Source: a virus. Taken from it: a DNA stretch of 64,000 nucleotides. Numbering within the stretch: the stretch's first letter is position 1; every line of letters begins with the position of its first letter. The DNA is taken from positions 1 to 64,000 of the IMG/VR virus record IMGVR_UViG_3300045974_000399. One strand, written 5' to 3'. Of this stretch, positions 10,756 to 64,000 are shown one piece after another. Under the pieces are notes generated by a model. That model ran no database searches and was not told the origin of the DNA. It worked only from the letters and a program-made list of their open reading frames with translations. Made by a program: the position numbers and the translations under genes.

Positions 10756-13191
10756 CTAAATGGAAATACCTTTTTTGGCGAGTATTTTCTTGAACTGTTC
10801 AACGCCAATAACTGATACCCCAGATTTTCTAGCTTTGTCTAGCTTACCCCCGGATTCACTTGGGTCTTTAGCTATGAGGTATGTAGTCTGTGCTGACACA
10901 GACCCACTAACAATTCCACCATTATCCTCAATAACCTTTTCCAAGGTCTTATCCCTGAATCCTGTGAAAACAATCCGTGCATCCTGCAAACCTGTTCCCG
11001 CAGCTCTTTCAGGTTTCTTACCGAGCTTTATAACCTTTGCGTTGGCTTTAAGGAACGTGTTGAACTGCTTTATTCCATCCCCAAACTGAATAGAGAAGTT
11101 CTTGAAACCAGGGATTTGAGATACCTCTTCTTTAACCTCACGCTTTGTTTTACCTGTCCAGCGTGAAAACATCTCATCCCCGTACACTCGGTACAGGGCT
11201 TTCATTCTACGTGTTCCGAAGTTACGCCCAAAATAGGGCAACGCCGCAGCCAGGATGTAAATAGGTATACCGTCCAAACCTTTACGAATATTCTCAAATA
11301 TGTTTTCTGCTGACTTCTGCTGGAAACCTTCGATGCCTTTTATGTTACTGATAGACATATTTAGAACTTTGTCCACGGTATCATAGCCCGCATGATAAAA
11401 CTTGTCTACCACGCCTGGACCAATGTCATCGACTCCAATGGACTTGAAGAAAAAGAGTATCTGCTTTATCTTGACTGCAGAATGCTCTGACTCTGAACCG
11501 CTGGTAACAACCAGGTCAACATAGGTTTCATTCCAGTCGTAGTCGCCAAAGCCTTCCTTGTCTGGCATCTGTGCTCGTGCTGCTTTCGTCACCACCTTAA
11601 GAATATGCGGGATTACATCTCCAGCGCGAGTTATCAAAACTTTGGCGCCAGGCCCTACCTTGTTGTCCAGAATGAACTTAGCGTTAAAGGCAGTGGCCTT
11701 ATTGACCCTTACCCCGCCTAGACGTGTAGGCACTATCCAGACTCTGGGTTTGATGAAACCATCTTTGCTCAAGCGCCACTCAACATGGTCAACTATGGCC
11801 TCGACTTGTTCGGTATCTCCAGTCTTAAAAGCGCGAGCGTATCTGGGTTTAAGTTCCTCTGTTTCATTCCCTAACTTCTTACGAATCAGTGCGGAGTTAA
11901 CCTCAACCACCGCGCCATCCATCTCATAGTCAGCTTTCTTTCGGCGCGCGTTGACGTACTCAACCAGCATTCCTTCATTTAGATCTTTGGCTGGAACCAC
12001 CGCGTAGGGTACGATAGAGAAGCCCCACTTCTTCAGGGTCTTAAGCTGCGTTTCTTTATCCATTGTGGATTCTTCAGACATAATGCAGTACGCAGTAACT
12101 GTCATTTTGGGAAGAACGCGCAGATCCGCAGCATTACGATTAAACATACCTCCAGCCATATTGCGTGCTGTGGTATAGGGTTCTTTCGTTCTTTCGTTCT
12201 TGAAAACTACCTTTTTCAGGGCCTCAAACGCAGAATTCCCCAGCATACCTTCTGCCCTAACCGATACATCCTTGGTGGTCTCGGGTATCTTCTTTGGTAC
12301 CCCTGGGATGCTTTGAACATGTCTTAACACGTCTTGACCCACTAAGCCATCCCCACGAGTAGTGGCGGCAGTCAAGGCACCTGTACCTTTTTTGTATTTG
12401 AGCTGTAAACTTATTCCATCAAGCTTATCCGAAAGTACGTACTTGGAGTCCTTTGCTTTGGCCACCCACGCACCTACGCTCTTATTATCTGGCTTTGTCT
12501 TGCGAAGGCTACCCATCGGGTATTCAAGCGTAACGCGCTTTTCACTCTTGGCTACAGGCGCTCCAACCTTCTCCAGAAGCTTAGCCTGCTTAGGGTCTCT
12601 CCTGATTATTATTTCTTTCAGAGCATCATACTGGTTATCTGTCAGCGTAGACTCTTTAGTTTTCACATTATGGTAGTTTCTGTTTGCTGTGGTCGCAGTA
12701 GACATGAGCAATTCAATCGGCAGCTCTTCGCCTGATAGGTAGCGCCCTGCAGCACAAACCAACGTAGGATTCCTGGTTATGGCATACAAAGGAAGAACCT
12801 TATTCAGGTCCTCCTGCGTGAAAGACGCTAGGGTCTTTAATAGGGTCTTGAACACAATTTTTTGGTTGGGTAAAGCTTTGGTTATAATCCGTATCGTTCC
12901 TAGAGGCTTCTTGTTCAGAAGTTTACGAAGGAATATATCAGCAGGGTCTACCTTGGTTAGTCTAGCCGAAAACATACCTTCTGTTTGATACAGAATAAGG
13001 CACTCTCCGGCTTCGTTTATATTCACGGCCAGCGGGGTAAAGAATACCTGTGTTTTTTCCAGGGTGGACTTATACCTGGAGCCCACAAGTATCTCAGTCT
13101 TCCTAACCATAACTTTTGCGGTCTGAAATGTTTTGAGGGCCTTGGTAATGTCCCGCGTAAACAACAAATCCTTTAGGGCTATCTTGGACAC
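10756..13191 (-). CDS. ligA: NAD+-dependent DNA ligase with N-terminal extension
   Basis: KLDG adenylation motif, TRGDG, RNMAGG, DGAVV, RAGDVIP, HhH repeats and C-terminal BRCT. Confidence 0.95.
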   Translation of the reverse strand: MSKIALKDLLFTRDITKALKTFQTAKVMVRKTEILVGSRYKSTLEKTQVFFTPLAVNINEAGECLILYQTEGMFSARLTKVDPADIFLRKLLNKKPLGTIRIITKALPNQKIVFKTLLKTLASFTQEDLNKVLPLYAITRNPTLVCAAGRYLSGEELPIELLMSTATTANRNYHNVKTKESTLTDNQYDALKEIIIRRDPKQAKLLEKVGAPVAKSEKRVTLEYPMGSLRKTKPDNKSVGAWVAKAKDSKYVLSDKLDGISLQLKYKKGTGALTAATTRGDGLVGQDVLRHVQSIPGVPKKIPETTKDVSVRAEGMLGNSAFEALKKVVFKNERTKEPYTTARNMAGGMFNRNAADLRVLPKMTVTAYCIMSEESTMDKETQLKTLKKWGFSIVPYAVVPAKDLNEGMLVEYVNARRKKADYEMDGAVVEVNSALIRKKLGNETEELKPRYARAFKTGDTEQVEAIVDHVEWRLSKDGFIKPRVWIVPTRLGGVRVNKATAFNAKFILDNKVGPGAKVLITRAGDVIPHILKVVTKAARAQMPDKEGFGDYDWNETYVDLVVTSGSESEHSAVKIKQILFFFKSIGVDDIGPGVVDKFYHAGYDTVDKVLNMSISNIKGIEGFQQKSAENIFENIRKGLDGIPIYILAAALPYFGRNFGTRRMKALYRVYGDEMFSRWTGKTKREVKEEVSQIPGFKNFSIQFGDGIKQFNTFLKANAKVIKLGKKPERAAGTGLQDARIVFTGFRDKTLEKVIEDNGGIVSGSVSAQTTYLIAKDPSESGGKLDKARKSGVSVIGVEQFKKILAKKGISI

Positions 13192-13656: not shown

Positions 13657-15174
13657 TTATTCCCAGGAATTTACTTCTATTTCAACTATATGAGCTACCG
13701 CTGTTTGATTCCGTATCATTAAGCTATCGAATGACGCCGACCCAACCGCATTACGTTTACCTGCTACTAGATAAGCGATTATCTCATCTGCCATAAAGCT
13801 AGCTTGATAAACGAATGTAGTTGGACTACTGACATTCCAGAGATACAGATTTAATCGGTCAAGAGGAACCTGAATTAAGGCCAGCGAATAATTTTGACCG
13901 GGGCCTATTTCATACTGAGCACTTATTATCCTTCTCCATGATTTGCCATTAAGAAGCAACGCATTTGAGCCATACCCAGGTTCACCTTGAAATCCTTGGT
14001 GACCTTGAGGGCCCTGTGTCCCAGCGCGGTCTACCTTAACTATGGTTGTGAGTATAGCAGAAGGACTTTCACCTATTACTGTTGTAGGATTTTCAACACG
14101 AGCAGCATAGTAAGTACGTCCCACTTGCAGTCGATAGTTCTTGTTTAGATCCTGGATATCCACCATAAACTCTGCTATCGTCGGCTGACAATCTACATCG
14201 CTTTCACTAGAACCAAACCCTGCGCTAACGCCTAGGGTGCGTGTTCCATCATGTAAGCGCAATGCCGACCAGCCGTTTTGACCTAAGAGTTTAAGGCTAG
14301 TAGATACGTTATAAACCCCAACCTCTGTAAAGTTAAGAATAGGCCCGCTAAAGAGTATGCCATTGGTGGGTCCTGACTTAGACCAGATTATGTCTGTCCA
14401 CATGTTTGCCGGAAACGTCAGCATATCTGCGAAGAGCTGAGTGTAGATCAAAAGCGTGGTTCCGCCTTGAGTACCCTGAAGCCCGCGAAAGCCTTGCGCT
14501 CCGTCTACACCCTGCACCCCTTGAACACCTTGATAGCCGCGTACACCTTGTGAACCCTGATGACCTTGTGAACCTTGGACACCGCGAAAGCCTTGTGCTC
14601 CATCTCCTCCAGATTCTCCAGTTGAACCCTGTGGACCCTGTGAACCCTCCGACCCCTGTGGGCCCTGAACTCCAGTATCGCCCTGGGTTCCAACGGGTCC
14701 TTGATGACCTTGAACACCTTGTGCTCCGGTATCACCTTGCGAGCCTTGCCCTCCACTTGTTCCAGATAACCCCTGTGAACCCTGATGACCTTGTACGCCG
14801 TCAATACCAGAAAATCCTTGTGGGCCTTGATATCCTTGTGGGCCTTGTGGGCCCCTTTCACCTTGAAAGCCGTCCTCTCCTGCTTTACCTTGTGGTCCAC
14901 TAGAACCTTGTGCTCCAGAAAAACCCTGTGAACCTTGCGGGCCCCTAAATCCTTGTACGCCTTGCCGACCCTGATAGCCTTGCGGGCCCTGGGGACCTGT
15001 TGTTGGGCCGCCTGGATTAAGGTCGATAATTGTAATCATTCCCTCACTACGAGCACGCCAAATGTCAACGGTTATAACTTCAGTTTGTATCGCCTCTCCT
15101 GGGTATAGGGTTTCTCCATCCAAAAAAGATATGCCGCCCGTTCCAGCTAAAGCAGTTGCAGTAATTTTATACAT
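13657..15174 (-). CDS. collagen-like (Gly-X-Gln) fibre protein
   Basis: ~60 uninterrupted G-X-Y triplets (Y mostly Gln), then a globular beta domain and a second short collagen segment. Confidence 0.9.
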   Translation of the reverse strand: MYKITATALAGTGGISFLDGETLYPGEAIQTEVITVDIWRARSEGMITIIDLNPGGPTTGPQGPQGYQGRQGVQGFRGPQGSQGFSGAQGSSGPQGKAGEDGFQGERGPQGPQGYQGPQGFSGIDGVQGHQGSQGLSGTSGGQGSQGDTGAQGVQGHQGPVGTQGDTGVQGPQGSEGSQGPQGSTGESGGDGAQGFRGVQGSQGHQGSQGVRGYQGVQGVQGVDGAQGFRGLQGTQGGTTLLIYTQLFADMLTFPANMWTDIIWSKSGPTNGILFSGPILNFTEVGVYNVSTSLKLLGQNGWSALRLHDGTRTLGVSAGFGSSESDVDCQPTIAEFMVDIQDLNKNYRLQVGRTYYAARVENPTTVIGESPSAILTTIVKVDRAGTQGPQGHQGFQGEPGYGSNALLLNGKSWRRIISAQYEIGPGQNYSLALIQVPLDRLNLYLWNVSSPTTFVYQASFMADEIIAYLVAGKRNAVGSASFDSLMIRNQTAVAHIVEIEVNSWE

Positions 15175-15858: not shown

Positions 15859-16206
15859 TTACATCGCTGCTCGCGATATACAGTTTGATAGGGCATAGGC
15901 TAGCCCTGCTAGAAATATTGATCCAGATATATTCCGCTTAACGAATACTTCATCCAGAACATTGTATCCAAACCCCTTTAGTGCCCCGATAAGCATGAAG
16001 TATATAACCAAGAAAAACGCCACAGCACAAAGCTGTGCGGAAAACATGGCCATGGTATTACTTATCGTAGCAAAGCCATTGAAGATTATTGAACCGAAGA
16101 AAATCACAGACAGAATCAGGATAATAATCGTAAACTGCGACTGATTCCAGTTTTTGGGATTAAGCCGGGGTTTAATCCACATTAAGAGATTTAGCAAAAA
16201 GTCCAT
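15859..16206 (-). CDS. holin-like membrane protein (DUF350-like C-terminus)
   Basis: 3 predicted TM segments; immediately upstream of endolysin; AAGGAGG RBS. Confidence 0.55.
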   Translation of the reverse strand: MDFLLNLLMWIKPRLNPKNWNQSQFTIIILILSVIFFGSIIFNGFATISNTMAMFSAQLCAVAFFLVIYFMLIGALKGFGYNVLDEVFVKRNISGSIFLAGLAYALSNCISRAAM

Positions 16207-16239
16207 GGTTAAGCCTCCTTGAATCAATTTAACTACTAC

Positions 16240-16248
16240 CCTAAATTA
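16240..16248 (-). promoter_or_regulatory. putative late promoter motif TAATTTAGG
   Basis: recurs in late intergenic regions (16240, 25960, 45916, 56589, 61876). Confidence 0.5.
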
Positions 16249-16276
16249 TGAAGGTATTGGATTATGCTTATACAGA

Positions 16277-16312
16277 AATACCGGCGTTACTATTGAAAGT
16301 AACGCCGGTATT
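16277..16312 (-). terminator. terminator closing the baseplate-fibre-radical SAM operon
   Basis: aataccggcgttact/agtaacgccggtatt perfect 15-bp stem. Confidence 0.7.
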
Positions 16313-16328
16313 CTACACAGATAGTGCA

Positions 16329-17573
16329 CTATAAGCAAAGAGAGTCCATAGGTATCGGATAATTGAATCGGATATACATGGCGTAAGGCGCTAACAATCG
16401 GGTTAGTGGGCACACGTAAGTGTTGTACTTAAGGTTAGCCCAACACATGCCCCCGCATATCCAACGCGCTCCACAGTTATCTGTGCAAGGGGGACTAACT
16501 CGTTTGTCCAATAGCTCTGCCTGAAACAGCTTGGAGTCAAAGTCGTCTATGGTACAGAAATTAGCATCACTATCAGGCAAGGATGCGTATTCGTGACACA
16601 AAAATATCTTGCCAGAGTGACTTATGGATAACGAACTACTACACGATTCATAGTTAACTCCGTATGCCTCCAGCATATTCATTTTGGAAAGATAACGTCG
16701 AAAGATCGAGGCATTTATTGGTAATGTACCCGCTTCAATTTCCAATAATTCCTTTTCAATATCTTCCACAGGTATTTCTACGTTACTCTTTCCGCAGGTT
16801 GCGCCATTGGTATCAATCAGATTATATACAACTGGAACTATGCCTTCAAATTCCTTAGATTGACTCGCTCTAACTTCTGGCAATTCAGCCAGTCTGTCAA
16901 TTGGATACACCACCGAAACATTTAGCAAATGGTTAAATTCTGGGTACTTATCGACCAGGGTCTGTATTATCTCCCGAGTTTTATCTGTATTAGAATGACC
17001 TTCAAAATTACTTATGCAGAAGTCAAGGTTGACATACAAAAGAGTTTTAGTTGCTATAACCCACTCAACGAAGTCATCTGTTAATAGCGAACCATTTGTA
17101 AGTATAGTAACTCGGTTGAAATAGCTGGCAACTTCTTTAACCAGCTCAGGGTACAAAAGAGGCTCGCCCCCAGAGATGCAGACCTGCTTGAAGCTATTAT
17201 CAGGTAATATGCTTCGGAGCTTCTTTATCCAAGCGATATCGAACACGCTCTTTTTATCGGATCCGTTTTTACACGCATAGCAGAAACTACAATCCATATT
17301 GCACTCATTGGTTATGATGCAAAATCCTACTGCAGGGTCATGTGATAACTGTTCTCTCTGCCGCTGACAGTACAATTCACTTAATTCGGCTGTGTCATCT
17401 CGAGTTACATCTAAACCGTATTTTTCCAAAACATCTGCATCAGACAGCAGAGTTATCCTTTCCGCCTGAGCTCCCAAGACTACACTGAACTTATTGGTAC
17501 GAGGAGTGTATATCATAGTGTTGGCGTATTTATTCAGGCGTATGCCCACGTTAGTTTGATAATCAAAATCCAC
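16329..17573 (-). CDS. radical SAM/SPASM-domain protein (peptide-maturase type)
   Basis: CNMDCSFC, SGGEPLL, LTNGSL; SPASM Cys array C..GKIFLC..CxxxCxxxxxCGGxC..C; N-terminal RRE-like extension. Confidence 0.92.
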   Translation of the reverse strand: MDFDYQTNVGIRLNKYANTMIYTPRTNKFSVVLGAQAERITLLSDADVLEKYGLDVTRDDTAELSELYCQRQREQLSHDPAVGFCIITNECNMDCSFCYACKNGSDKKSVFDIAWIKKLRSILPDNSFKQVCISGGEPLLYPELVKEVASYFNRVTILTNGSLLTDDFVEWVIATKTLLYVNLDFCISNFEGHSNTDKTREIIQTLVDKYPEFNHLLNVSVVYPIDRLAELPEVRASQSKEFEGIVPVVYNLIDTNGATCGKSNVEIPVEDIEKELLEIEAGTLPINASIFRRYLSKMNMLEAYGVNYESCSSSLSISHSGKIFLCHEYASLPDSDANFCTIDDFDSKLFQAELLDKRVSPPCTDNCGARWICGGMCWANLKYNTYVCPLTRLLAPYAMYIRFNYPIPMDSLCL

Positions 17574-18816
17574 TTAAAGCCTCCTGTTTAGTTTTATCCT
17601 TCATGGATAACCAAAGATTATATGCCATCAGAGTGACATGTAGTGAACACGCGTCTTCTGAGGCATCAGATACAAAATGACAACGGGCAGTACAGGAATA
17701 TATTAGAGGGCATGTCCGACATTTAAGGGGAAGAGCAGCACACTTAGGCGTTAGTATGTGATCTTCACAATTGGTACCTTGAGATGCACACTCAGAACAG
17801 GATGTTACTTCCATCAACTGCCGAGTATGCTGCTGAGGGTTATCTGAGGTTTGCTCCAAACCAGCATACAAGCAATGCGTATACTTATAGTCTCCAACCA
17901 AAACCAACCTGTTTATATTGCAATTCAAGGTGGGCCGGCTTGGGTTATTTCTTAAGTAGTTTAGGCCTCTGATGTCTGCTGATTTGAAGTTTTGTGCGGC
18001 AGATTGCTCAGGGACGCTATCAACTAAGTCCTGTATAAATCGGTTCATGTTCATATTGTACGGAGGATTAATCTTGTGGTCGGATACCTTGGAGATAACT
18101 ATGTCGGTATTCTTTAGCTTACGGAGCCTCTCAAAGATGTGTAGAATTTCACCTGATCTACCTGGTAAGACGTTCAACACAAAGACAAGATTATCATTAG
18201 GAATGGGGTCAAAATAGTCGTATGACAATCTACTGAATTCTTGGTCAAAGTTATCTACATTTAGTGACCTGAGGATCAGGATCTTTGTAGGTAGTATTCG
18301 GATAAAACCCATCAAGTCATCATCCAAGTTAAGGCCATTAGTGAATAGTGTAATGCTATCAAAAGAGTGATACACACCCAACAATAGATTCTTTAATGCC
18401 CCCTTGTCAATAGTAGGCTCACCCCCAAAGATATGTAAGTCTCGTATACTAGGATATAGCTCTTTATGCTTTAAGATGTGAGTAACGGACGCAAAGTCAG
18501 CTACGGGTCTATTCCTACTCAGACAATACTCGCAGCTTAGATTGCACTCTGAGTTTGATACTACCAACGTAGTGTACTTTATTTCCTTTCGGTCTAGAGT
18601 ATTGGCATAAAAGATTTGTCTCTGCTTAGGCGTTACCTCTTTTAGGTACACGCTACAAAACTGAACGTCTTCTATGCCCTCGCTGGATATTGAGATCAAA
18701 GGACTTACTTCAGCAAAGTTATCAAAAAGTATGTGACCATCTTTGACTTTTATTATGAACCCAGAAGTAACATCAGACAGAGCAATTAAGTTGTTTTTGG
18801 TTATTGCAGGAATCAT
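17563..18816 (-). CDS. radical SAM/SPASM-domain protein
   Basis: CNLSCEYC, FGGEP, FTNG; Cys-rich C-terminus CSEC..C..C..CRTCPLIYSCTARC..C. Confidence 0.9.
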   Translation of the reverse strand: MIPAITKNNLIALSDVTSGFIIKVKDGHILFDNFAEVSPLISISSEGIEDVQFCSVYLKEVTPKQRQIFYANTLDRKEIKYTTLVVSNSECNLSCEYCLSRNRPVADFASVTHILKHKELYPSIRDLHIFGGEPTIDKGALKNLLLGVYHSFDSITLFTNGLNLDDDLMGFIRILPTKILILRSLNVDNFDQEFSRLSYDYFDPIPNDNLVFVLNVLPGRSGEILHIFERLRKLKNTDIVISKVSDHKINPPYNMNMNRFIQDLVDSVPEQSAAQNFKSADIRGLNYLRNNPSRPTLNCNINRLVLVGDYKYTHCLYAGLEQTSDNPQQHTRQLMEVTSCSECASQGTNCEDHILTPKCAALPLKCRTCPLIYSCTARCHFVSDASEDACSLHVTLMAYNLWLSMKDKTKQEALSGF

Positions 18817-19565
18817 ATTGCAGATACTCGATAATAGCTACTGTAGATTCCAAAAGAAGTACCTGCTATGTTTATGGTCTTACCTGATTTGAACACGTAC
18901 TCACCAGAAACATTGAGAGTTATCTCAGCCTTGTGCAGATGCAAATCTAGGAGTGGATATGCTCCAGTACTTGGGTTAAGCTTAAGCTCCGTTATGTCCC
19001 TTAAAAGGTAGACTGAAGCAGCGCTATCAGAGGGACTAGATACAACCTCCAGAGAAACCTGACCAAGGGGGTCATACAGATTAAAATCCAGAGTTGTCGG
19101 ATAATTAGGGCTAGATACCCAAGCTTCTCTTGATCTGTAAGCTACTACCTCAAGGCCATCCCTACTAATGCACTTGGTTATCAAACGGCTTGCTAAACGA
19201 GACTGAAGAAATGCACACAGCGTATCTGGATCGCTGAAGTACAAGAGGTTTATGTCTGCGTGTCGGTATATTGTAACTCCGAGCAAGTCCGTGGTATCCA
19301 GTATTCCGAATGAGCTTAACTCAAGCTCAAACTTGCTCTTGTAAAAGGATAGATCTTTAGTCTCCTCGTAGTCAAAGCCCCTGAAGGTGAAATCCCTGGC
19401 AGTTATCAAGGATACACCTTCCCGAATATTATTGTAAAACGGCGTGGCATTCAGATTAACGTCCGTAAGGATAAGACCCGAGGGGTCACCCGCTATATCA
19501 GGTACAACCCGAATTAAGTCTGCCGTGCTAGCTGCATTCTTGTCTTTAACCATTAAGATCAACAT
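18813..19565 (-). CDS. hypothetical accessory protein of the fibre/radical SAM cluster
   Basis: 250 aa; AGGAGA RBS; stop overlaps the rSAM start by 4 nt. Confidence 0.7.
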   Translation of the reverse strand: MLILMVKDKNAASTADLIRVVPDIAGDPSGLILTDVNLNATPFYNNIREGVSLITARDFTFRGFDYEETKDLSFYKSKFELELSSFGILDTTDLLGVTIYRHADINLLYFSDPDTLCAFLQSRLASRLITKCISRDGLEVVAYRSREAWVSSPNYPTTLDFNLYDPLGQVSLEVVSSPSDSAASVYLLRDITELKLNPSTGAYPLLDLHLHKAEITLNVSGEYVFKSGKTINIAGTSFGIYSSYYRVSAI

Positions 19566-19592
19566 GTGTTTGTCTCCTAGAGAAGATTGACG

Positions 19593-21719
19593 TTACATCA
19601 TTCCTTGGCAGCAGCTATGCGGAGAATAAAACTGACAAGTGCAAGGACAGGTACAGGTACAAGTGCAAGTACATGAGCAAAACTGAACGTTAGGCGGGTT
19701 AGAGTCAGAATATGGAACATACACAGGATTACTCGGGTCCGAAGTAAACGTTAGCTTTAGTGCATTCCCCAGAATCATATCCTTAGCTGGAACCAGAACA
19801 TGGGCGGCAGCTGCATCCGTTTTATCGTATGCTAGTAAATTATACTGACCTGCCAATTTTTCAGCAGAAACCGGAGGGGCGATACCGTTCAAAGTAACTG
19901 TATTAGTTGCATTGTCCAGAGCTATGGTTAGGTAGCTACCTACAGCAATATTAAGAACATCCTCCGTGCCCTTGGCTATGATAGGTGTTTTACCTGGAGA
20001 GGCTATCGTTTTATACGCCAGCAACGTGCCGAGATTTGTTATGGTCATGGTTTTATTTACAGGGTCTGTTATTACAGCAACACCTGTACCACCATTTACT
20101 ACCAGAGTATCCTGTAAAGCATTCATGTTAATTTGACCCTGCGAAGCATAGGCAGGGGTACTATTCGAGACCGCAATAGAGTGAACGTTCTGAGTGGTGT
20201 TTGTAACCGTTATGGTCTCGGTAGCTGGATCTGTGGCTAAACCTATTCCCGGTCCAGCGCTAATTGCTCTCCGTGTTCCAACAATTCTACCCCAGGTAGA
20301 GTTACCTTCGTAGATAAGATAATCTCCAACGTTAAAGTGAACCCCACCCATTGTACCCTGAAGAGATATCTTCCAGTAGTGACCCTGACGAAGTTCAGTA
20401 AATATCGTGGTTGGTGTAGCGGGAGGATAAACTCCAGAGGAAGCGTCCCAAAGCCCTTTGTATAAGACATAGGGTAGCTCTGTGTTGTCAATCTTGTCCC
20501 ACAAGCCAGTTCCTTCGTATACCAGCCAGTCACCTGTTTGGTAAGCTACGTTATTCAAGACCCCACCTACAGCGATAACGTAGTAACTACCGGGTGTTAC
20601 TGCGTTGTTTGGATATCCTGCTGCGCCGGCATAAGTTCCATCTGGATTCTTGATATTCCAGCGACCTGCATATACCAAACCGGCAACGTGAGAGTAGGGC
20701 AATGACCAGATTATGATGTTTGATTTATCCGCCTCATTGTTAGCCGCCATGTTTACAACTTGGCTGGTGGGTATGATTGTTCCTGTTGTGGTTATCCCAC
20801 AAGGATCCGAACTTTCCGGGGTAGCACCTGTTGCACCCAGCAAAGATAAGGCTTCATACAGCACCTCAAACTTACCTGTAAGTGCACCTGAACTGTGATA
20901 CTTTATCGCCCGACATTGACCCTTACCTCGACCGGAATAGATATACATGAACGCCCAGTCAACAGAAATAAGTGGTGGCGGGGAGTCTACGATTAACGCA
21001 GAAAACAAGGTAAACGTATTGTGTACTCCGTCACCTGCCCCTGGAGAAGTTTCAGGAACGTCAGATGTAACACTCGTTACGGTACCCTGATATAGCAAGG
21101 AGCCATTCAAGAGACCCCAAGCTAGTGGGCCAGTATCAGACATTGCATACCGGGTAACGATTGCAGGATGAATCTTGGTATTCGTGGGAGAGTAATCCTT
21201 TGTTATCCCATGATTGACCACGTAGGCGTTACTTCCCGTCTTGGCAGGATGAGGAAGATCCCCATAGAAGTTGACTCGGGGTAAACTCATGGCCCAAGTC
21301 AGAGTCAAGTCAACTACTGAGCCCAAATAAGGAGATAATAAGACACAGTGCGTCTTATATATCTGACCAGGCTGCTTGACTATAGGCTCCGCGTAACAGG
21401 TAAGGGCAAAAAGTATCTGGACTCCAGCATTATTGGGGTCATCAATGTATAGACCGATTTCCCCAATAAACAAAGGACCTAGACCGGATGCGGTAACAGG
21501 TACAGTACATACAAAGTCCATTACCTCATCCGTTAAAACGTCTACTGTGCCTATTGTCCCCTCGTACACTATTTCCCCATGAAGTGCAGTGTCCTCTTTC
21601 ACAGGCGAGTAGTTTGTTCCGCTGCCTACCTTGAAGTTGAGTATCTGAAGCTTTATCTGCTTTGAGTTCGCATCAAGTATTCTTTCGTACCCGATGGCTG
21701 TTATCTGCATAGTGCTCAT
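19593..21719 (-). CDS. tail fibre protein with C-terminal alternating-Cys tail
   Basis: P2 gpH/DUF3751-like N-terminus (ITAIG..FKVGSG..IGEIGLY..LFA); duplicated YxGxW..GD[WY]L.YEG..W fibre repeats; ends CSCTCTCTCTCPCTCQFYSPHSCCQGMM. Confidence 0.85.
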   Translation of the reverse strand: MSTMQITAIGYERILDANSKQIKLQILNFKVGSGTNYSPVKEDTALHGEIVYEGTIGTVDVLTDEVMDFVCTVPVTASGLGPLFIGEIGLYIDDPNNAGVQILFALTCYAEPIVKQPGQIYKTHCVLLSPYLGSVVDLTLTWAMSLPRVNFYGDLPHPAKTGSNAYVVNHGITKDYSPTNTKIHPAIVTRYAMSDTGPLAWGLLNGSLLYQGTVTSVTSDVPETSPGAGDGVHNTFTLFSALIVDSPPPLISVDWAFMYIYSGRGKGQCRAIKYHSSGALTGKFEVLYEALSLLGATGATPESSDPCGITTTGTIIPTSQVVNMAANNEADKSNIIIWSLPYSHVAGLVYAGRWNIKNPDGTYAGAAGYPNNAVTPGSYYVIAVGGVLNNVAYQTGDWLVYEGTGLWDKIDNTELPYVLYKGLWDASSGVYPPATPTTIFTELRQGHYWKISLQGTMGGVHFNVGDYLIYEGNSTWGRIVGTRRAISAGPGIGLATDPATETITVTNTTQNVHSIAVSNSTPAYASQGQINMNALQDTLVVNGGTGVAVITDPVNKTMTITNLGTLLAYKTIASPGKTPIIAKGTEDVLNIAVGSYLTIALDNATNTVTLNGIAPPVSAEKLAGQYNLLAYDKTDAAAAHVLVPAKDMILGNALKLTFTSDPSNPVYVPYSDSNPPNVQFCSCTCTCTCTCPCTCQFYSPHSCCQGMM

Positions 21720-21747
21720 ACTGCTCTCCTTTTTGGTACGAAATTTC

Positions 21748-23586
21748 CTAGCCAAAATCCACTATTTTTCGAGACTTAACATCAGATAACTTTGCCACGT
21801 TTCTGCATAAATACTGGATAGTAACACCTTCTTCAATCTCAGAGCACTCAGGAGTAATTTCCACTAGTCTAGGTATCCCGAATATAACCGCGTTATAGTC
21901 AGGATATGGAGAGTACAAAACCATCTCAGAAGGAGCAAGCATGTAAAACATATCTACTACGCTCTTATCTAAAGGTAAATGCACAATATCATCTCGGGTA
22001 TATGGCCTAAGATGATTCCAGTAGCTACGATATGTAGCCGGTGTAGTTATACTTGATATGAGCGCCCAGGATGAGGGGTTAGTTGTAGGATACTGATTCG
22101 TAGACAATGCCCCTGATGCTACAGTGCACTTGTAAAATTTGCCCGAGGTCAACTCATACCTAGAGGTAGCATAAGGTTTTCCCGAGCCAACGTGAACTAT
22201 ATCTCCTATATTGTACGGAATGAAAGGGTTCCAGATACCTTTGTGGGCTGCGGCGTCCGCGTCGGTCCAAATCAGACTGGAGGATCTAACTGACCACTTA
22301 CTTAAGGTATCCGCGGGAGTAACATTGGGATTTATATGACCAATTCTAGGGTCTCCTGCGGTTAAGGTAGGATAGTGTAGATTAGACCCCATCATAAGAT
22401 ATATCGGTGCATAGTTTACAGTGCACACGTAGTCAATACCTGGGTCATTCTCATAAATTTCAGTCGTATAAATATTAGTTACAGGATTTACTGGTAGAGT
22501 CTCAGGACGATAAAATAGCAGATAATTGCGGGTGTATAACTGAGTCAGAGTCCACGTGTCTGTAGGATCGCGCTGTTTCAACAGGAAGTTCAACAACAGC
22601 ATGAATTTATCTGTGCCAGCCACAGACTTATACCTAGAAAGGTATATAACATAGTTAAGAAATGTTCCTGATAAAAGCCAGCTGAATTTGCTGAGGTCAA
22701 ATCCCAAAAGTTTAGAGGTACGTGAAACTATTTCTGGATGAGTATCAATGGTTATCTGCCTAAGCCTACCTAGCTCTACGATAGGCATATCTACCTGGTC
22801 AAGAAGTGTTTCATCCGAAGCGGAAATATAGTCGGCAATGAACGGAGAATCCTGCATCCAAGGGGGTGCTTGTTTCTTACGAAGCGGAATATACTCCCAC
22901 ACTTTAACGTATATATTCCAAGAAGTAACCGTAACAATAGAGTCTGGATCTACTCCACCTACAGAATCAGAGTCAACGCCACCAATGGAATCAACGCTTA
23001 CGGTTAAACTTGTTGGACTAGAAGAGGTTACAAATCCCTCAACAAAGGTCTTACTCTTTCCAGGTAGGGTACAGGAACAACGCACTCTTTCATTTACTGC
23101 TATTGTGTTCCCTGTAACTACAAACGTTAAACTACCATACCCGATATTATGAGAGGTCGAACTAGTTATTGGGGTGGTATAAAAATCCTTCCGAAAGGAA
23201 GCCGATGACTCATGCCGAGAAACGCACACAAAGTGTATATGACCATACAGAACAATCTCATTCTCAGAGTACAGATGTCTAAATATCCAAGGTCGAGGTA
23301 AATCCCAGGACAGTCTATTCCAGCGACGCGCTAAGAAATCGGTCTTAAATAGCGTACTCGGGTTATGCGCTATCACGCACTCATAAACTGAGTTGTCATA
23401 TTTTACATTTTGTCCCACCTGGTATAGTTTTGTCCATATAGCGGGGTTTGATTCTGGAGCTTTCCCAACATTACTTTCTACCGCTGTATATATGAATCCG
23501 CTCCGAAGTACTACTGCGTTTATCAGATACGCTGTGCCAATATTCCAGGGCGTAGTAATTCCAGGTTTCCATATGTCCGCTCGCAT
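21748..23586 (-). CDS. baseplate wedge/tail protein with CBM5/12-like repeats
   Basis: WxxxxxYxxG[DQ]xVxYxxxxYxC repeats; follows the gp6-like gene; GAGGA RBS. Confidence 0.65.
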   Translation of the reverse strand: MRADIWKPGITTPWNIGTAYLINAVVLRSGFIYTAVESNVGKAPESNPAIWTKLYQVGQNVKYDNSVYECVIAHNPSTLFKTDFLARRWNRLSWDLPRPWIFRHLYSENEIVLYGHIHFVCVSRHESSASFRKDFYTTPITSSTSHNIGYGSLTFVVTGNTIAVNERVRCSCTLPGKSKTFVEGFVTSSSPTSLTVSVDSIGGVDSDSVGGVDPDSIVTVTSWNIYVKVWEYIPLRKKQAPPWMQDSPFIADYISASDETLLDQVDMPIVELGRLRQITIDTHPEIVSRTSKLLGFDLSKFSWLLSGTFLNYVIYLSRYKSVAGTDKFMLLLNFLLKQRDPTDTWTLTQLYTRNYLLFYRPETLPVNPVTNIYTTEIYENDPGIDYVCTVNYAPIYLMMGSNLHYPTLTAGDPRIGHINPNVTPADTLSKWSVRSSSLIWTDADAAAHKGIWNPFIPYNIGDIVHVGSGKPYATSRYELTSGKFYKCTVASGALSTNQYPTTNPSSWALISSITTPATYRSYWNHLRPYTRDDIVHLPLDKSVVDMFYMLAPSEMVLYSPYPDYNAVIFGIPRLVEITPECSEIEEGVTIQYLCRNVAKLSDVKSRKIVDFG

Positions 23587-23596
23587 GGAGTTCCTC

Positions 23597-25549
23597 CTAG
23601 TTCGGAATAAGCTGTATTGAACCGTCAGCTCTAGTAACCTTAGTAAAGTTACCAGCCGCCTCCGAGGGGTCCACATAATTTACAGTATTCCGACTGGAGT
23701 AACCGGTTTCAATAACCAGATCACTACTGGAAACACTTATGTATGCGGGGGGTGTTGGTATGCCCGTTACGGGATGCACCGAAATTGGTATAGGGATAAA
23801 GTCAGACGCAGGTACTAAGTCACCCGCTGGAGTTGGGTCAAAAAACTCTATATAGTCAATTTCAGGAATACTTGTCTTAAGGATATTAGATATATCTGTG
23901 AGTGCTATTCGCTTATTCAATATCTGCTGGCTTGTGCTGAACACACTCAAAATAAAAGTTCTAGCACTAGCTGCAACCGTGGATAAATCTGTCCTCAAAA
24001 AGCACATTATCTTTACTTGTAACTTGCGGGCATCCTTTATAGGATTCTGAGGTTTAAGAATTGAACCCTTATACTTATACTGGTCAAACCAGGTTAGAAA
24101 CGCTGCCCACTCTGAGTTTGTCCAGTTTACGCCTGTATCAGAAAGAATACTCACCCATATTAGATTCATAAGCTTTGGGTGTGCATCTGTGGTTGTAAGG
24201 ATATAATCCACGGTCTCAACAGGATTTATTGGAGGCTCTGCGCTCTTATCCCAGAGTGGAATCATCATCTTAAGCAAGAGATCTCTTTCAAAGCGAATAC
24301 AGACATCTCCAACCCCTGGATACGATAAACAATATGCAATATGGTCATCTGTTGTAACTGCTCTACAATTAGCTTTGAAGAGCATTGAGGCAGTAGCTTT
24401 GTAATAGCGTGCCGGCCTTTCATCATGCCCTGTGGCAGTAGTAGTCAAAATCCAAGTGCCTGCAGCTAACAGTTTTGCCTTGAAGTTATTTACGATAGAT
24501 ACAGTAGCATCCCTGCCGGAAACATGAACAATGGTTCCTATTCCGACTCCAGTTACCTCTTCTATCTGAAGTCCGACAAAAGACTTAGACCAAATACTAC
24601 CAACAGGTAGATTAAATATTGGCAGCGCATCTGTGATTGAACTGATTTGAATAGATACGCTAGAAAGAGTCATACCCTCTGCGCTTTGCAGTACATTATC
24701 ACGAGTTACAAATCCCTTGACACCCTGTGGGGGTGTACTATTTAGGATAGCATTCAGAGTTACCGAGCTAAAGACCGAAGTAATTGGAGAACTGGCACCT
24801 AGGGTCTCAACATAAGTTATTTCTATGCTAGATCCATAAGCTGGTTTGGCACCATTTATTCCGTTACCAAATTGTAGTACAACGTCACCTGTCCCTAAGG
24901 TATCATCCACAAAAACAGTTGCGGAGGGGCCATAATTCCAAAGGCCGTCAATTATGCGTGTCCAAGTTACACCGCCAATTATCATCCTTATGTCTAAGTC
25001 TGAGATACTCATTGGAGATATAGCAGGTATCGACAACTGCTGAAAGTCTGTTCCATCGGAAACATAGTTTCTGTAGTATAGAGAACCTTGATGTATAAAT
25101 ACTTTATCAATTGCTGAAGTTGGATTACCTGAGATATCATTGGCAAAAGTTATCGGCGTTCGATTGAAGTAGTCAACACCAAGAACGTTAAACTGGGAGT
25201 ACTCAGGAATAGTTACAGTTCCGGTTATTGGAAGAGTATCCTGAGAAAACCTGTTAAGCGTTATAATTTGCGCTGCAGGAAGCTTACGCATTATCCTAAC
25301 ACCTAGCATCCGAGTAAGCGCATATATCGTGCTATCTCTATTTGCTGTGTCAAAAAAACCTTCCTTTAGTGACTGCTCGATAGACCACTGATTGTAGGTT
25401 CCAATTGCGCTGTTATGCTCAATCAGAGTTTCACCTGTAGACCCTTCGTTAAGATCAGTCCAAGAGTCTCTTTGCTTAAGGTCATCCTGAAGCGCAGCTA
25501 CATAGGATGTAAAATCTGCTTTTACGTTTATTAAATCCAGTTTTGGCAT
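23597..25549 (-). CDS. baseplate wedge protein (T4 gp6/baseplate J-like)
   Basis: DFxS..W.D..EGSTG..E.F.DTA; FGNGINGAKP; RAVTTDD. Confidence 0.88.
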   Translation of the reverse strand: MPKLDLINVKADFTSYVAALQDDLKQRDSWTDLNEGSTGETLIEHNSAIGTYNQWSIEQSLKEGFFDTANRDSTIYALTRMLGVRIMRKLPAAQIITLNRFSQDTLPITGTVTIPEYSQFNVLGVDYFNRTPITFANDISGNPTSAIDKVFIHQGSLYYRNYVSDGTDFQQLSIPAISPMSISDLDIRMIIGGVTWTRIIDGLWNYGPSATVFVDDTLGTGDVVLQFGNGINGAKPAYGSSIEITYVETLGASSPITSVFSSVTLNAILNSTPPQGVKGFVTRDNVLQSAEGMTLSSVSIQISSITDALPIFNLPVGSIWSKSFVGLQIEEVTGVGIGTIVHVSGRDATVSIVNNFKAKLLAAGTWILTTTATGHDERPARYYKATASMLFKANCRAVTTDDHIAYCLSYPGVGDVCIRFERDLLLKMMIPLWDKSAEPPINPVETVDYILTTTDAHPKLMNLIWVSILSDTGVNWTNSEWAAFLTWFDQYKYKGSILKPQNPIKDARKLQVKIMCFLRTDLSTVAASARTFILSVFSTSQQILNKRIALTDISNILKTSIPEIDYIEFFDPTPAGDLVPASDFIPIPISVHPVTGIPTPPAYISVSSSDLVIETGYSSRNTVNYVDPSEAAGNFTKVTRADGSIQLIPN

Positions 25550-63950: not shown

Positions 63951-64000
63951 CCTCAATCTAGGTAGTTACGCTTTATGCTTCAAGGCATATAGCGTGTAAG

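Follow-up and report, generated by a model that had tools for sequence, protein, structure and literature searches.

The closest characterised precedent for the system considered here is archaeal and not viral. In Methanococcus voltae the SPASM enzyme CrpC installs ranthionine crosslinks in CrpA, a Cys-rich protein of 28.8 kDa, as described by Dieter et al. (2026, PMC13692751), whose paper makes no mention of phages. The system considered here lies on the minus strand of a 64,000-nucleotide stretch of viral DNA (positions 1 to 64,000 of IMG/VR record IMGVR_UViG_3300045974_000399, called the window below), where a tail-fibre gene whose product ends in a Thr-Cys ladder is followed by an open reading frame (ORF) of 250 aa and by the genes for two radical S-adenosylmethionine (radical SAM) enzymes with SPASM-type Cys motifs, rSAM1 and rSAM2. 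On balance it is fairly probable that these are dedicated SPASM maturases that modify the Cys ladder of the fibre, most likely by thioether crosslinks. The likeness to the archaeal pair would be that a SPASM enzyme with a predicted RiPP recognition element (RRE; RiPP, ribosomally synthesised and post-translationally modified peptide) acts on a full-size protein, in its C-terminal region of Cys repeats, and not on a short peptide, and that a third small protein, which raises the yield, is encoded beside CrpC and CrpA. The Crp system differs in being archaeal and cellular, in carrying C-X-X-Q/D motifs within 17-residue repeats, and in its N-terminal recognition, whereas the window has a virion fibre tip as the putative substrate, a CxC-type Thr-Cys ladder, an internal recognition segment, and two enzymes.

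CteB (PDB 5WGG/5WHY), a thioether-forming maturase that acts on SCIFF, provides the best full-length structural match to rSAM1, with an RRE-type domain (putative in rSAM1), a radical SAM core and a 7-Cys SPASM domain in the same order and with a substrate that is Cys-rich, but it shares 15% identity with rSAM1, works as a single enzyme and has a peptide of ~45 aa as its substrate. The pairs PapB/PapA (freyrasin) and NxxcB/NxxcA show that SPASM enzymes form several Cys-to-side-chain thioethers within a repeated short motif; in contrast to their substrates, the ladder of the window offers no Asp/Glu or Asn acceptors and is part of a 705-aa structural protein. QhpD/QhpC and anSME exemplify SPASM enzymes modifying proteins that stay in a functional assembly, but they have other substrates and motifs (the C/S-x-P/A-x-R motif of anSME is absent here), are cellular, and act as one enzyme each. 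The locus does not qualify as a RiPP precursor of the sactipeptide or ranthipeptide kind, since the Cys-rich part is the end of a 705-aa fibre with no accompanying small ORF, protease or transporter, and only the order of segment and then core is alike.

In phages, radical SAM genes have been reported as variable inserts near tail-fibre genes, both in pelagimyophages, in which radical SAM cassettes are the sole difference between two host-recognition clusters and no link to the fibre is drawn (PMC7029224), and in the Campylobacter phages CP220 and CPt10 (phrog_1802); unlike the reading given here, these reports name no substrate and make no connection to fibre modification. The CP220 protein gp023 (NC_027997.1 16347-17450) shares its PHROG family with rSAM1 and has the complete make-up of a SPASM-type enzyme, and its neighbourhood contains no ladder protein; a 74-aa ORF with three Cys, gp022, precedes it. 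A search of the literature turned up no paper describing a phage fibre modified by radical SAM enzymes, in agreement with an earlier note made from the letters of the window alone (the sequence-only reading), whose author knew of no characterised example.

The fibre ORF of the window spans 19593-21755 on the minus strand, and its likely true start is the ATG at 21710, which is the start chosen by the gene caller and agrees with the relatives, giving a 705-aa protein encoded at 19593..21710 (stop codon included). It matches the tail-fibre families phrog_1162 and phrog_3737 (E 4e-7 and 8e-5) as well as phrog_21488 (8e-15), scores 19.1 bits against PF12571, under the cut-off of 23, and its tblastn matches are annotated tail-fibre genes of jumbo phages; by these predicted domains and by its place downstream of the baseplate wedge gene it is classed as a tail fibre. 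Residues 1 to ~480 are common to the relatives. The protein has 44% identity to the fibre of the diverged relative L003, 51% to the ortholog P0031 and, over residues 1-480, 44% to the fibre of L234, which has no ladder. The C-terminus, CSCTCTCTCTCPCTCQFYSPHSCCQGMM, holds 10 Cys in 28 residues, the Cys share in the long frames of the record being 1.2%. These 10 Cys make up the ladder at 19596..19682 (minus strand), F-CSCTCTCTCTCPCTC-QFYSPHS-CC-QGMM, which is the proposed substrate core, and since its codons vary (TGC/TGT, ACT/ACC) it is not a plain microsatellite. It is preceded by a pre-ladder segment of 49 aa (19683..19829, minus strand; Y..L.AYD ... PAKD..LG.ALKL.F ... NPVYVPY), as seen in an alignment and in the C-termini of 12 representative proteins.

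Downstream of the fibre, after a gap of 27 nt, follows the orphan 250-aa ORF (18813..19565), a possible helper, adaptor or virion partner, which overlaps by 4 nt the gene for the 417-aa rSAM2 (17563..18816), which in turn overlaps by 11 nt the gene for the 414-aa rSAM1 (16329..17573), all on the minus strand. The gene string is closed on that strand by a hairpin terminator at 16277..16312 (16-bp stem, -30.5 kcal/mol, z -7.06), positioned 3' of the rSAM1 stop codon and with the U-rich tail UAUUUCUGU after the stem; a generic terminator scan does not list a hairpin at ~16277-16312. With junctions of 27, -4 and -11 nt there is no space for a small precursor ORF, and a scan of 16200-19700 for small Cys-rich frames found none. 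The sequence-only reading had described this layout, from the Cys-rich fibre end, the 250-aa ORF and the two CxxxCxxC enzymes with SPASM-type Cys to the overlaps and the terminator, and had noted that no separate precursor was encoded, all of which is borne out.

The joint presence and absence of ladder and enzymes was followed in five records, namely the window (an 82-kb fragment), the diverged relative L003-L005/L233, L234, L237 and L238. In the diverged relative, whose rSAM1 homologues are 33-36% identical to rSAM1, the fibre also ends in a Thr-Cys ladder (...NPVYVPY...FCGCTCTCTCQC...CCKG) and is followed by a 245-aa ORF, an rSAM2 homologue (454 aa, 22% identity to rSAM2 over 351 aa, E 2e-11), a MiaB/RimO-family methylthiotransferase and two rSAM1 paralogues. 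L234 (295 kb, CheckV 100% complete) has instead a different, Cys-free fibre C-terminus and no cassette downstream of the fibre, and in its whole record there are zero ladder patterns and one unrelated 233-aa radical SAM protein, ~130-150 kb from the fibre. The complete 364-kb genome L237 carries the Thr-Cys ladder on an unrelated fibre body, followed by ORFs of 218 and 104 aa, three radical SAM proteins recognised by Pfam and a weak fourth, these enzymes being distantly homologous to those of the window lineage. In its relative L238, whose fibre is 57% identical to that of L237 over 352 residues, the fibre ends in a Gp10_C domain with no Cys, the next conserved gene abuts the fibre, and the whole cassette is absent. 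In two independent lineages, whose genomes measure 82-364 kb, ladder and cassette are neighbours (within 2 kb), and on two occasions both were lost together. Each ladder-bearing record contains a single instance of the ladder pattern and no instance of the reversed pattern that served as a control, and none of 71 cellular loci retrieved as a control by the same radical SAM pattern holds a ladder protein. Because the relatives without the ladder also lack the enzymes in two unrelated groups, the phage probably modifies its host-binding fibre tip chemically, and the proposal of the sequence-only reading that the Cys tail of the fibre is the radical SAM substrate is strengthened, the fibres with a ladder keeping the cassette and the Cys-free homologues of L234 and L238 lacking it; the counter-case it had named, homologous fibres with a Cys tail and no radical SAM genes or the reverse, is not seen in these records. 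The ladder module is likely to be the target of the cassette.

A further pairing is probable between P0059, a ladder protein, and P0006, a homologue of rSAM1, each of which is recorded on a Logan contig of 36,917 bases. The additional enzyme in the cassette of the diverged relative (L003:7632-8750, plus strand) is a 372-aa protein of the MiaB/RimO family, with a match to TIGR00089 at E 1.5e-43 that stays below the cut-off and a weak UPF0004 N-domain. RimO methylthiolates a protein Asp, and judged from its family this enzyme may contribute additional fibre chemistry in that lineage.

A parallel system of ladder plus maturase was seen at two loci of other IMG/VR phages (L017:8787-13240 and L026:8569-10252), at which proteins of 190-230 aa end in other Cys ladders, built from Asn/Gln/Tyr and Cys (CTCQCNYCTC..., CHCQNYCSY...), and adjoin one to three PapB-like radical SAM/SPASM genes and tail-fibre genes. 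PapB is the best NCBIfam match of their enzymes (1.9e-40 for L017, 2e-30 for L026), and an L017 enzyme reaches only 42 bits against the CrpC family TIGR04463. These pairings indicate that the theme of a ladder with SPASM enzymes is broader than the family of the window.

The ladder is the end of a conserved C-terminal module of ~75 aa, which comprises a strand of hydrophobic residues (lG..L.v.F), the motif Y.P, a linker of 8-12 residues, the ladder proper ((Y/F)C.CTCTCTC...) and, at its end, PC.CC.GSGPI or CCGEAGW. When a word index was searched with the fibre's last 121 residues, it returned P0024, a fibre of 438 aa whose body differs but whose end is the same, and in a profile search of 1.84 billion representatives the module stood at the extreme C-terminus of all 12 proteins found, which are otherwise diverse and range from 125 to 1011 aa. 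The 49 residues ahead of the ladder are conserved along with it on unrelated fibre bodies, as one would expect if they served for recognition; as far as alignments can tell, this pre-ladder segment is a candidate "leader-like" recognition sequence for the enzymes. A search of GTDB with the alignment of the ladder module gave no match, and in IMG/VR the ladder protein P0112 gave a short partial match only; the DNA pattern CxCTCTCxC returned from IMG/VR, among the matches listed, mostly wrong-frame simple repeats and is of no use as a census. One ladder-ended protein, P0043 (407 aa; on JGI/Logan contigs of at most 22.8 kb), bears the source name "cytoskeletal protein CcmA (bactofilin family)", a name that hints at a beta-helical body ahead of the module.

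As to the enzymes, rSAM1 scores 44.2 bits against the Pfam model Radical_SAM (PF04055) and carries the CX3CX2C motif CNMDCSFC (C91/C95/C98), while rSAM2, with CNLSCEYC at the same positions (C91/C95/C98), reaches 27.6 bits with hmmscan, where the cut-off is 29.5; a six-frame search puts the two enzymes above the cut-off, rSAM2 with 29.6 bits, and both are assigned from these matches to the radical SAM superfamily. The SPASM subgroup is defined by a 7-Cys motif, CX9-15GX4C ... CX2CX5CX3C ... C, that holds two auxiliary [4Fe-4S] clusters. In rSAM1 the corresponding Cys are C311-X9-G-X4-C326, C363-X3-C367-X5-C373-X3-C377 and C388, and in rSAM2, which has four extra Cys, C299-X8-G-X6-C315, C366-X2-C369-X5-C375-X3-C379 and C390, the pattern common to both being CX8-9GX4-6C ... 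CX2-3CX5CX3C ... C. Both enzymes are placed in the subgroup by this predicted motif, and rSAM1 also by its modelled fold, which matches the SPASM enzymes CteB and anSME up to residue ~406; in the alignment of the rSAM1 family the Cys of both the radical SAM and the SPASM motif are conserved. rSAM1 belongs to the broad phage family phrog_1802 (E 1e-20) and has eight clear homologues, with 35-42% identity, among 5.8 billion protein clusters. A scan of IMG/VR with rSAM1 as a single protein returned nothing, whereas the scan with its alignment did find relatives; scans of metagenomes and GTDB with the alignment returned generic matches to the radical SAM core and no close family members.

The nearest sequences with solved structures are SkfB and CteB for rSAM1 and SkfB for rSAM2. 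The AlphaFold2 model of rSAM1 (pLDDT, the predicted score of the local distance difference test, 82.8) matches CteB from end to end, between residues 5 and 406, with Z 21.1 and a root-mean-square deviation of 4.1 Å for 356 aligned residues, followed by ChlB (Z 21.1), anSME (Z 20.3), TigE (Z 17.2) and epimerases of the EpeE type (Z 15), and CteB, ChlB, anSME and TigE all outrank viperin, MoaA and QueE. By sequence and predicted fold, the enzymes group with peptide and protein maturases (CteB, SkfB, ChlB, anSME) and not with the nucleotide- or cofactor-modifying enzymes, membership of which the sequence-only reading had named as a finding that would speak against it. The N-terminus of the model contains strands at 8-13, 18-23, 28-33 and 40-43 and helices at 45-52 and 61-76, and the superposition begins at residue 5 of the model and residue 1 of the CteB chain. 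The first ~76 residues of rSAM1 are accordingly modelled as a beta-beta-beta(-beta)-alpha-alpha domain, situated where CteB has its recognition element and described here as RRE-like. A predicted complex of rSAM1 with the last 81 residues of the fibre scored 0.28 against a mark of 0.32, a value that counts neither way on binding.

In the mechanism proposed here, the last four genes of the baseplate and fibre string would constitute one functional module, in which rSAM1 and rSAM2 modify the ladder post-translationally in the infected cell, before or during assembly of the fibre. The enzymes would dock onto the pre-ladder segment, perhaps by way of the N-terminal domain and perhaps aided by the ~250-aa protein, as CrpC seems to be aided by CrpB, and would abstract a hydrogen from acceptor residues of the ladder, leading to Cys thioethers of the sactionine or ranthionine type. 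The acceptor would be Thr, which is the sole abundant candidate in the ladder. CteB links Cys to the side chain of Thr. The links could stay inside a single chain or could join the three chains of the fibre trimer to one another, and the outcome would be a redox-insensitive, protease-resistant and covalently stapled fibre tip. That each cassette has two to four paralogous enzymes points to several different sites or kinds of bond. We infer that the ladder is the substrate, that recognition involves the RRE-like domain and the pre-ladder segment, and that the virion benefits; that the cassette acts by thioether crosslinking in particular is put at close to an even chance. A wider form of the proposal, in which the end-piece of ~75 aa and its maturases make up a mobile two-part host-range module that can be grafted on unrelated fibres, with a receptor-binding tip stapled by thioethers, possibly from chain to chain, into a RiPP-like structure, so that the fibre would be the first virion protein to undergo enzymatic radical crosslinking, is advanced only tentatively.

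It has to be noted that a number of points weigh against modification of the ladder by thioether crosslinks. The bond type in the ladder is a guess. The Pfam SPASM model PF13186 matches neither enzyme of the window at E 0.01, while it does match one of the L017 enzymes and P0010, a distant homologue; since the SPASM motif and fold are present, the miss is read as divergence. The enzymes also fall into none of the curated maturase families, the best NCBIfam matches reaching 47-50 bits on the core alone against cut-offs of 180-340. The PapB family NF047865 (cut-off 340 bits) gives 46.8 bits for rSAM1 and 16.4 for rSAM2, on the core only, the SCIFF maturase family TIGR03974 (425) gives 16.7 bits on rSAM2, SkfB TIGR04403 (300) gives 30.9 and 27.1 bits, and CcpM TIGR04068 (500) gives 29.5 bits, and the CrpC family TIGR04463 (525) is unlisted for rSAM2 and absent from the best 25 of 60 rSAM1 matches. 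The co-occurrence comparison amounts to two independent lineages, as the window and L003 have a common ancestry and are counted once, and the contexts of P0024, P0031, P0043, P0112, P0127 and other ladder proteins lie outside it. To these are added two points that open the way to other explanations of the locus.

The first is that a CxC ladder could bind metal along the axis of the trimer, in which case the ladder would be a metal-thiolate site (Zn, Fe, Cu or Fe-S) that staples the trimer, and the radical SAM enzymes would perform another task or assist in folding or cluster loading. The strict CxC periodicity sets the thiols on one face of a strand, the CxC and CC motifs would be metallothionein-like, and there is a comparable case among fibres, in that repeated His-X-His (HxH) motifs at the tip of T4 gp37 bind iron. 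The authors of the CrpC study, too, weigh a metal-related role for CrpA (PMC13692751). This explanation is nonetheless considered unlikely, because metal sites require no dedicated radical enzymes and it leaves unexplained why the ladder comes and goes in step with two to four enzymes that resemble SPASM maturases and have a CteB-like N-terminal domain.

The second point concerns the ORF of ~220-250 aa, which always lies between the fibre and the enzymes (245 aa in L003 and 218 aa in L237 in the same slot), co-varies with the cassette, and could be the true substrate. It, or another part of the fibre, would then be the target of, for instance, epimerisation or C-C crosslinking, for which it may be said that EpeE-type epimerases are among the fold matches of rSAM1 and that radical SAM maturases do not require Cys substrates. 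The ORF of the window has no Pfam, PHROG or NCBIfam match and no homologue in the word-index search; an atlas search yields weak phage-tail-protein leads alone, and the single-sequence fold model has a pLDDT of 39. It is, however, barely conserved, with a faint local match to the L003 ORF (E 0.13) and no match to that of L237, whereas the conserved parts that travel with the enzymes are the ladder and the pre-ladder segment. SPASM enzymes encoded beside Cys-rich targets are moreover typically thioether formers (NCBIfam descriptions; PMC13692751), and action on another protein of the module appears distinctly improbable.

Still less credence is given to the possibility, which the sequence-only reading had raised, that the fibre serves as an oversized leader from which the ladder, as a RiPP core, is cleaved and set free as a modified peptide, such as a toxin or signal. 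A recognition segment followed by a C-terminal Cys-rich core does reproduce the layout of a RiPP precursor, but the cassette contains no protease, transporter or immunity gene, and in every case seen the module is on structural fibres in baseplate/fibre operons. Least probable of all is that the radical SAM genes have no functional link to the ladder and were inserted by chance in a variable host-recognition region beside a Cys-rich fibre, for which it speaks that such genes are common accessory genes in large phages (Campylobacter, marine) and that the SPASM enzyme of CP220 has no ladder neighbour, but against which stand the adjacency within 2 kb in two independent lineages and the two joint losses.

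If maturation of the ladder by the adjoining SPASM enzymes is confirmed, the new element would be RiPP-type SPASM maturation applied to a virion fibre, so that RiPP-type radical chemistry would serve to build a virus particle and not only to produce secreted peptides. Enzymatic covalent modification would join trimeric beta-structures, metal sites and intramolecular chaperones as known stabilisers of fibres, the crosslinking of whole proteins by SPASM enzymes, as in CrpC/CrpA, would extend to viruses, and the recurrence of SPASM-type radical SAM genes in phage host-recognition regions would be explained. The ~75-aa module and its enzymes would also represent a naturally portable "tag plus maturase" pair for the engineering of highly stable protein tips.

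With regard to the phage itself, the window covers the opening 64 kb of a record of 81.9 kb that CheckV estimates as 31% complete, which implies a genome of roughly 250-300 kb. On its minus strand lie several fibre genes along with those for tail sheath, portal, large terminase and baseplate (both hub and wedge), and from the tail sheath, portal, terminase and baseplate genes the phage is taken to be of the contractile-tailed jumbo type; blastn of the region against GenBank phages gave no match at the DNA level. The same-strand gene string that ends with the terminator has at its upstream end the gene for a baseplate wedge subunit (23597..25549, minus strand; phrog_219, E 9e-37), followed by that for a 642-aa fibre/baseplate-associated protein with a CBM5/12 repeat (21748..23676, minus strand; PF02839, E 6e-11), which precedes the fibre. 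This repeat is of a chitin- or carbohydrate-binding type. Syntenic homologues of 722 and 787 aa stand ahead of the fibre in L003 and L234, and these end in a short C..C motif (..CVTCPQ..) that the protein of the window lacks.

At the far end of the window, a gene on the minus strand (63966-64000 and on to record position 64781) encodes a 271-aa protein with many tandem repeats of the TATNAGHATTADS type. Apart from the fibre, the sole Cys-dense frame in the 82-kb record, at 64152-64628 just past the window, is a wrong frame of this repeat gene, and it was rejected as a second Cys-rich substrate. Just downstream of the terminator lies a second tail-fibre gene, coding for a collagen-like protein of 505 aa (13657-15174, minus strand) with many PHROG matches to tail-fibre and collagen-like families (best 5e-47), and then a 148-aa ORF. 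Also on the minus strand, at 10756-13191, is the gene for an NAD-dependent DNA ligase (phrog_3869, E 1e-131) whose N-terminus is extended by ~160 aa; a homologue of the ligase is found in L234 at the syntenic position.

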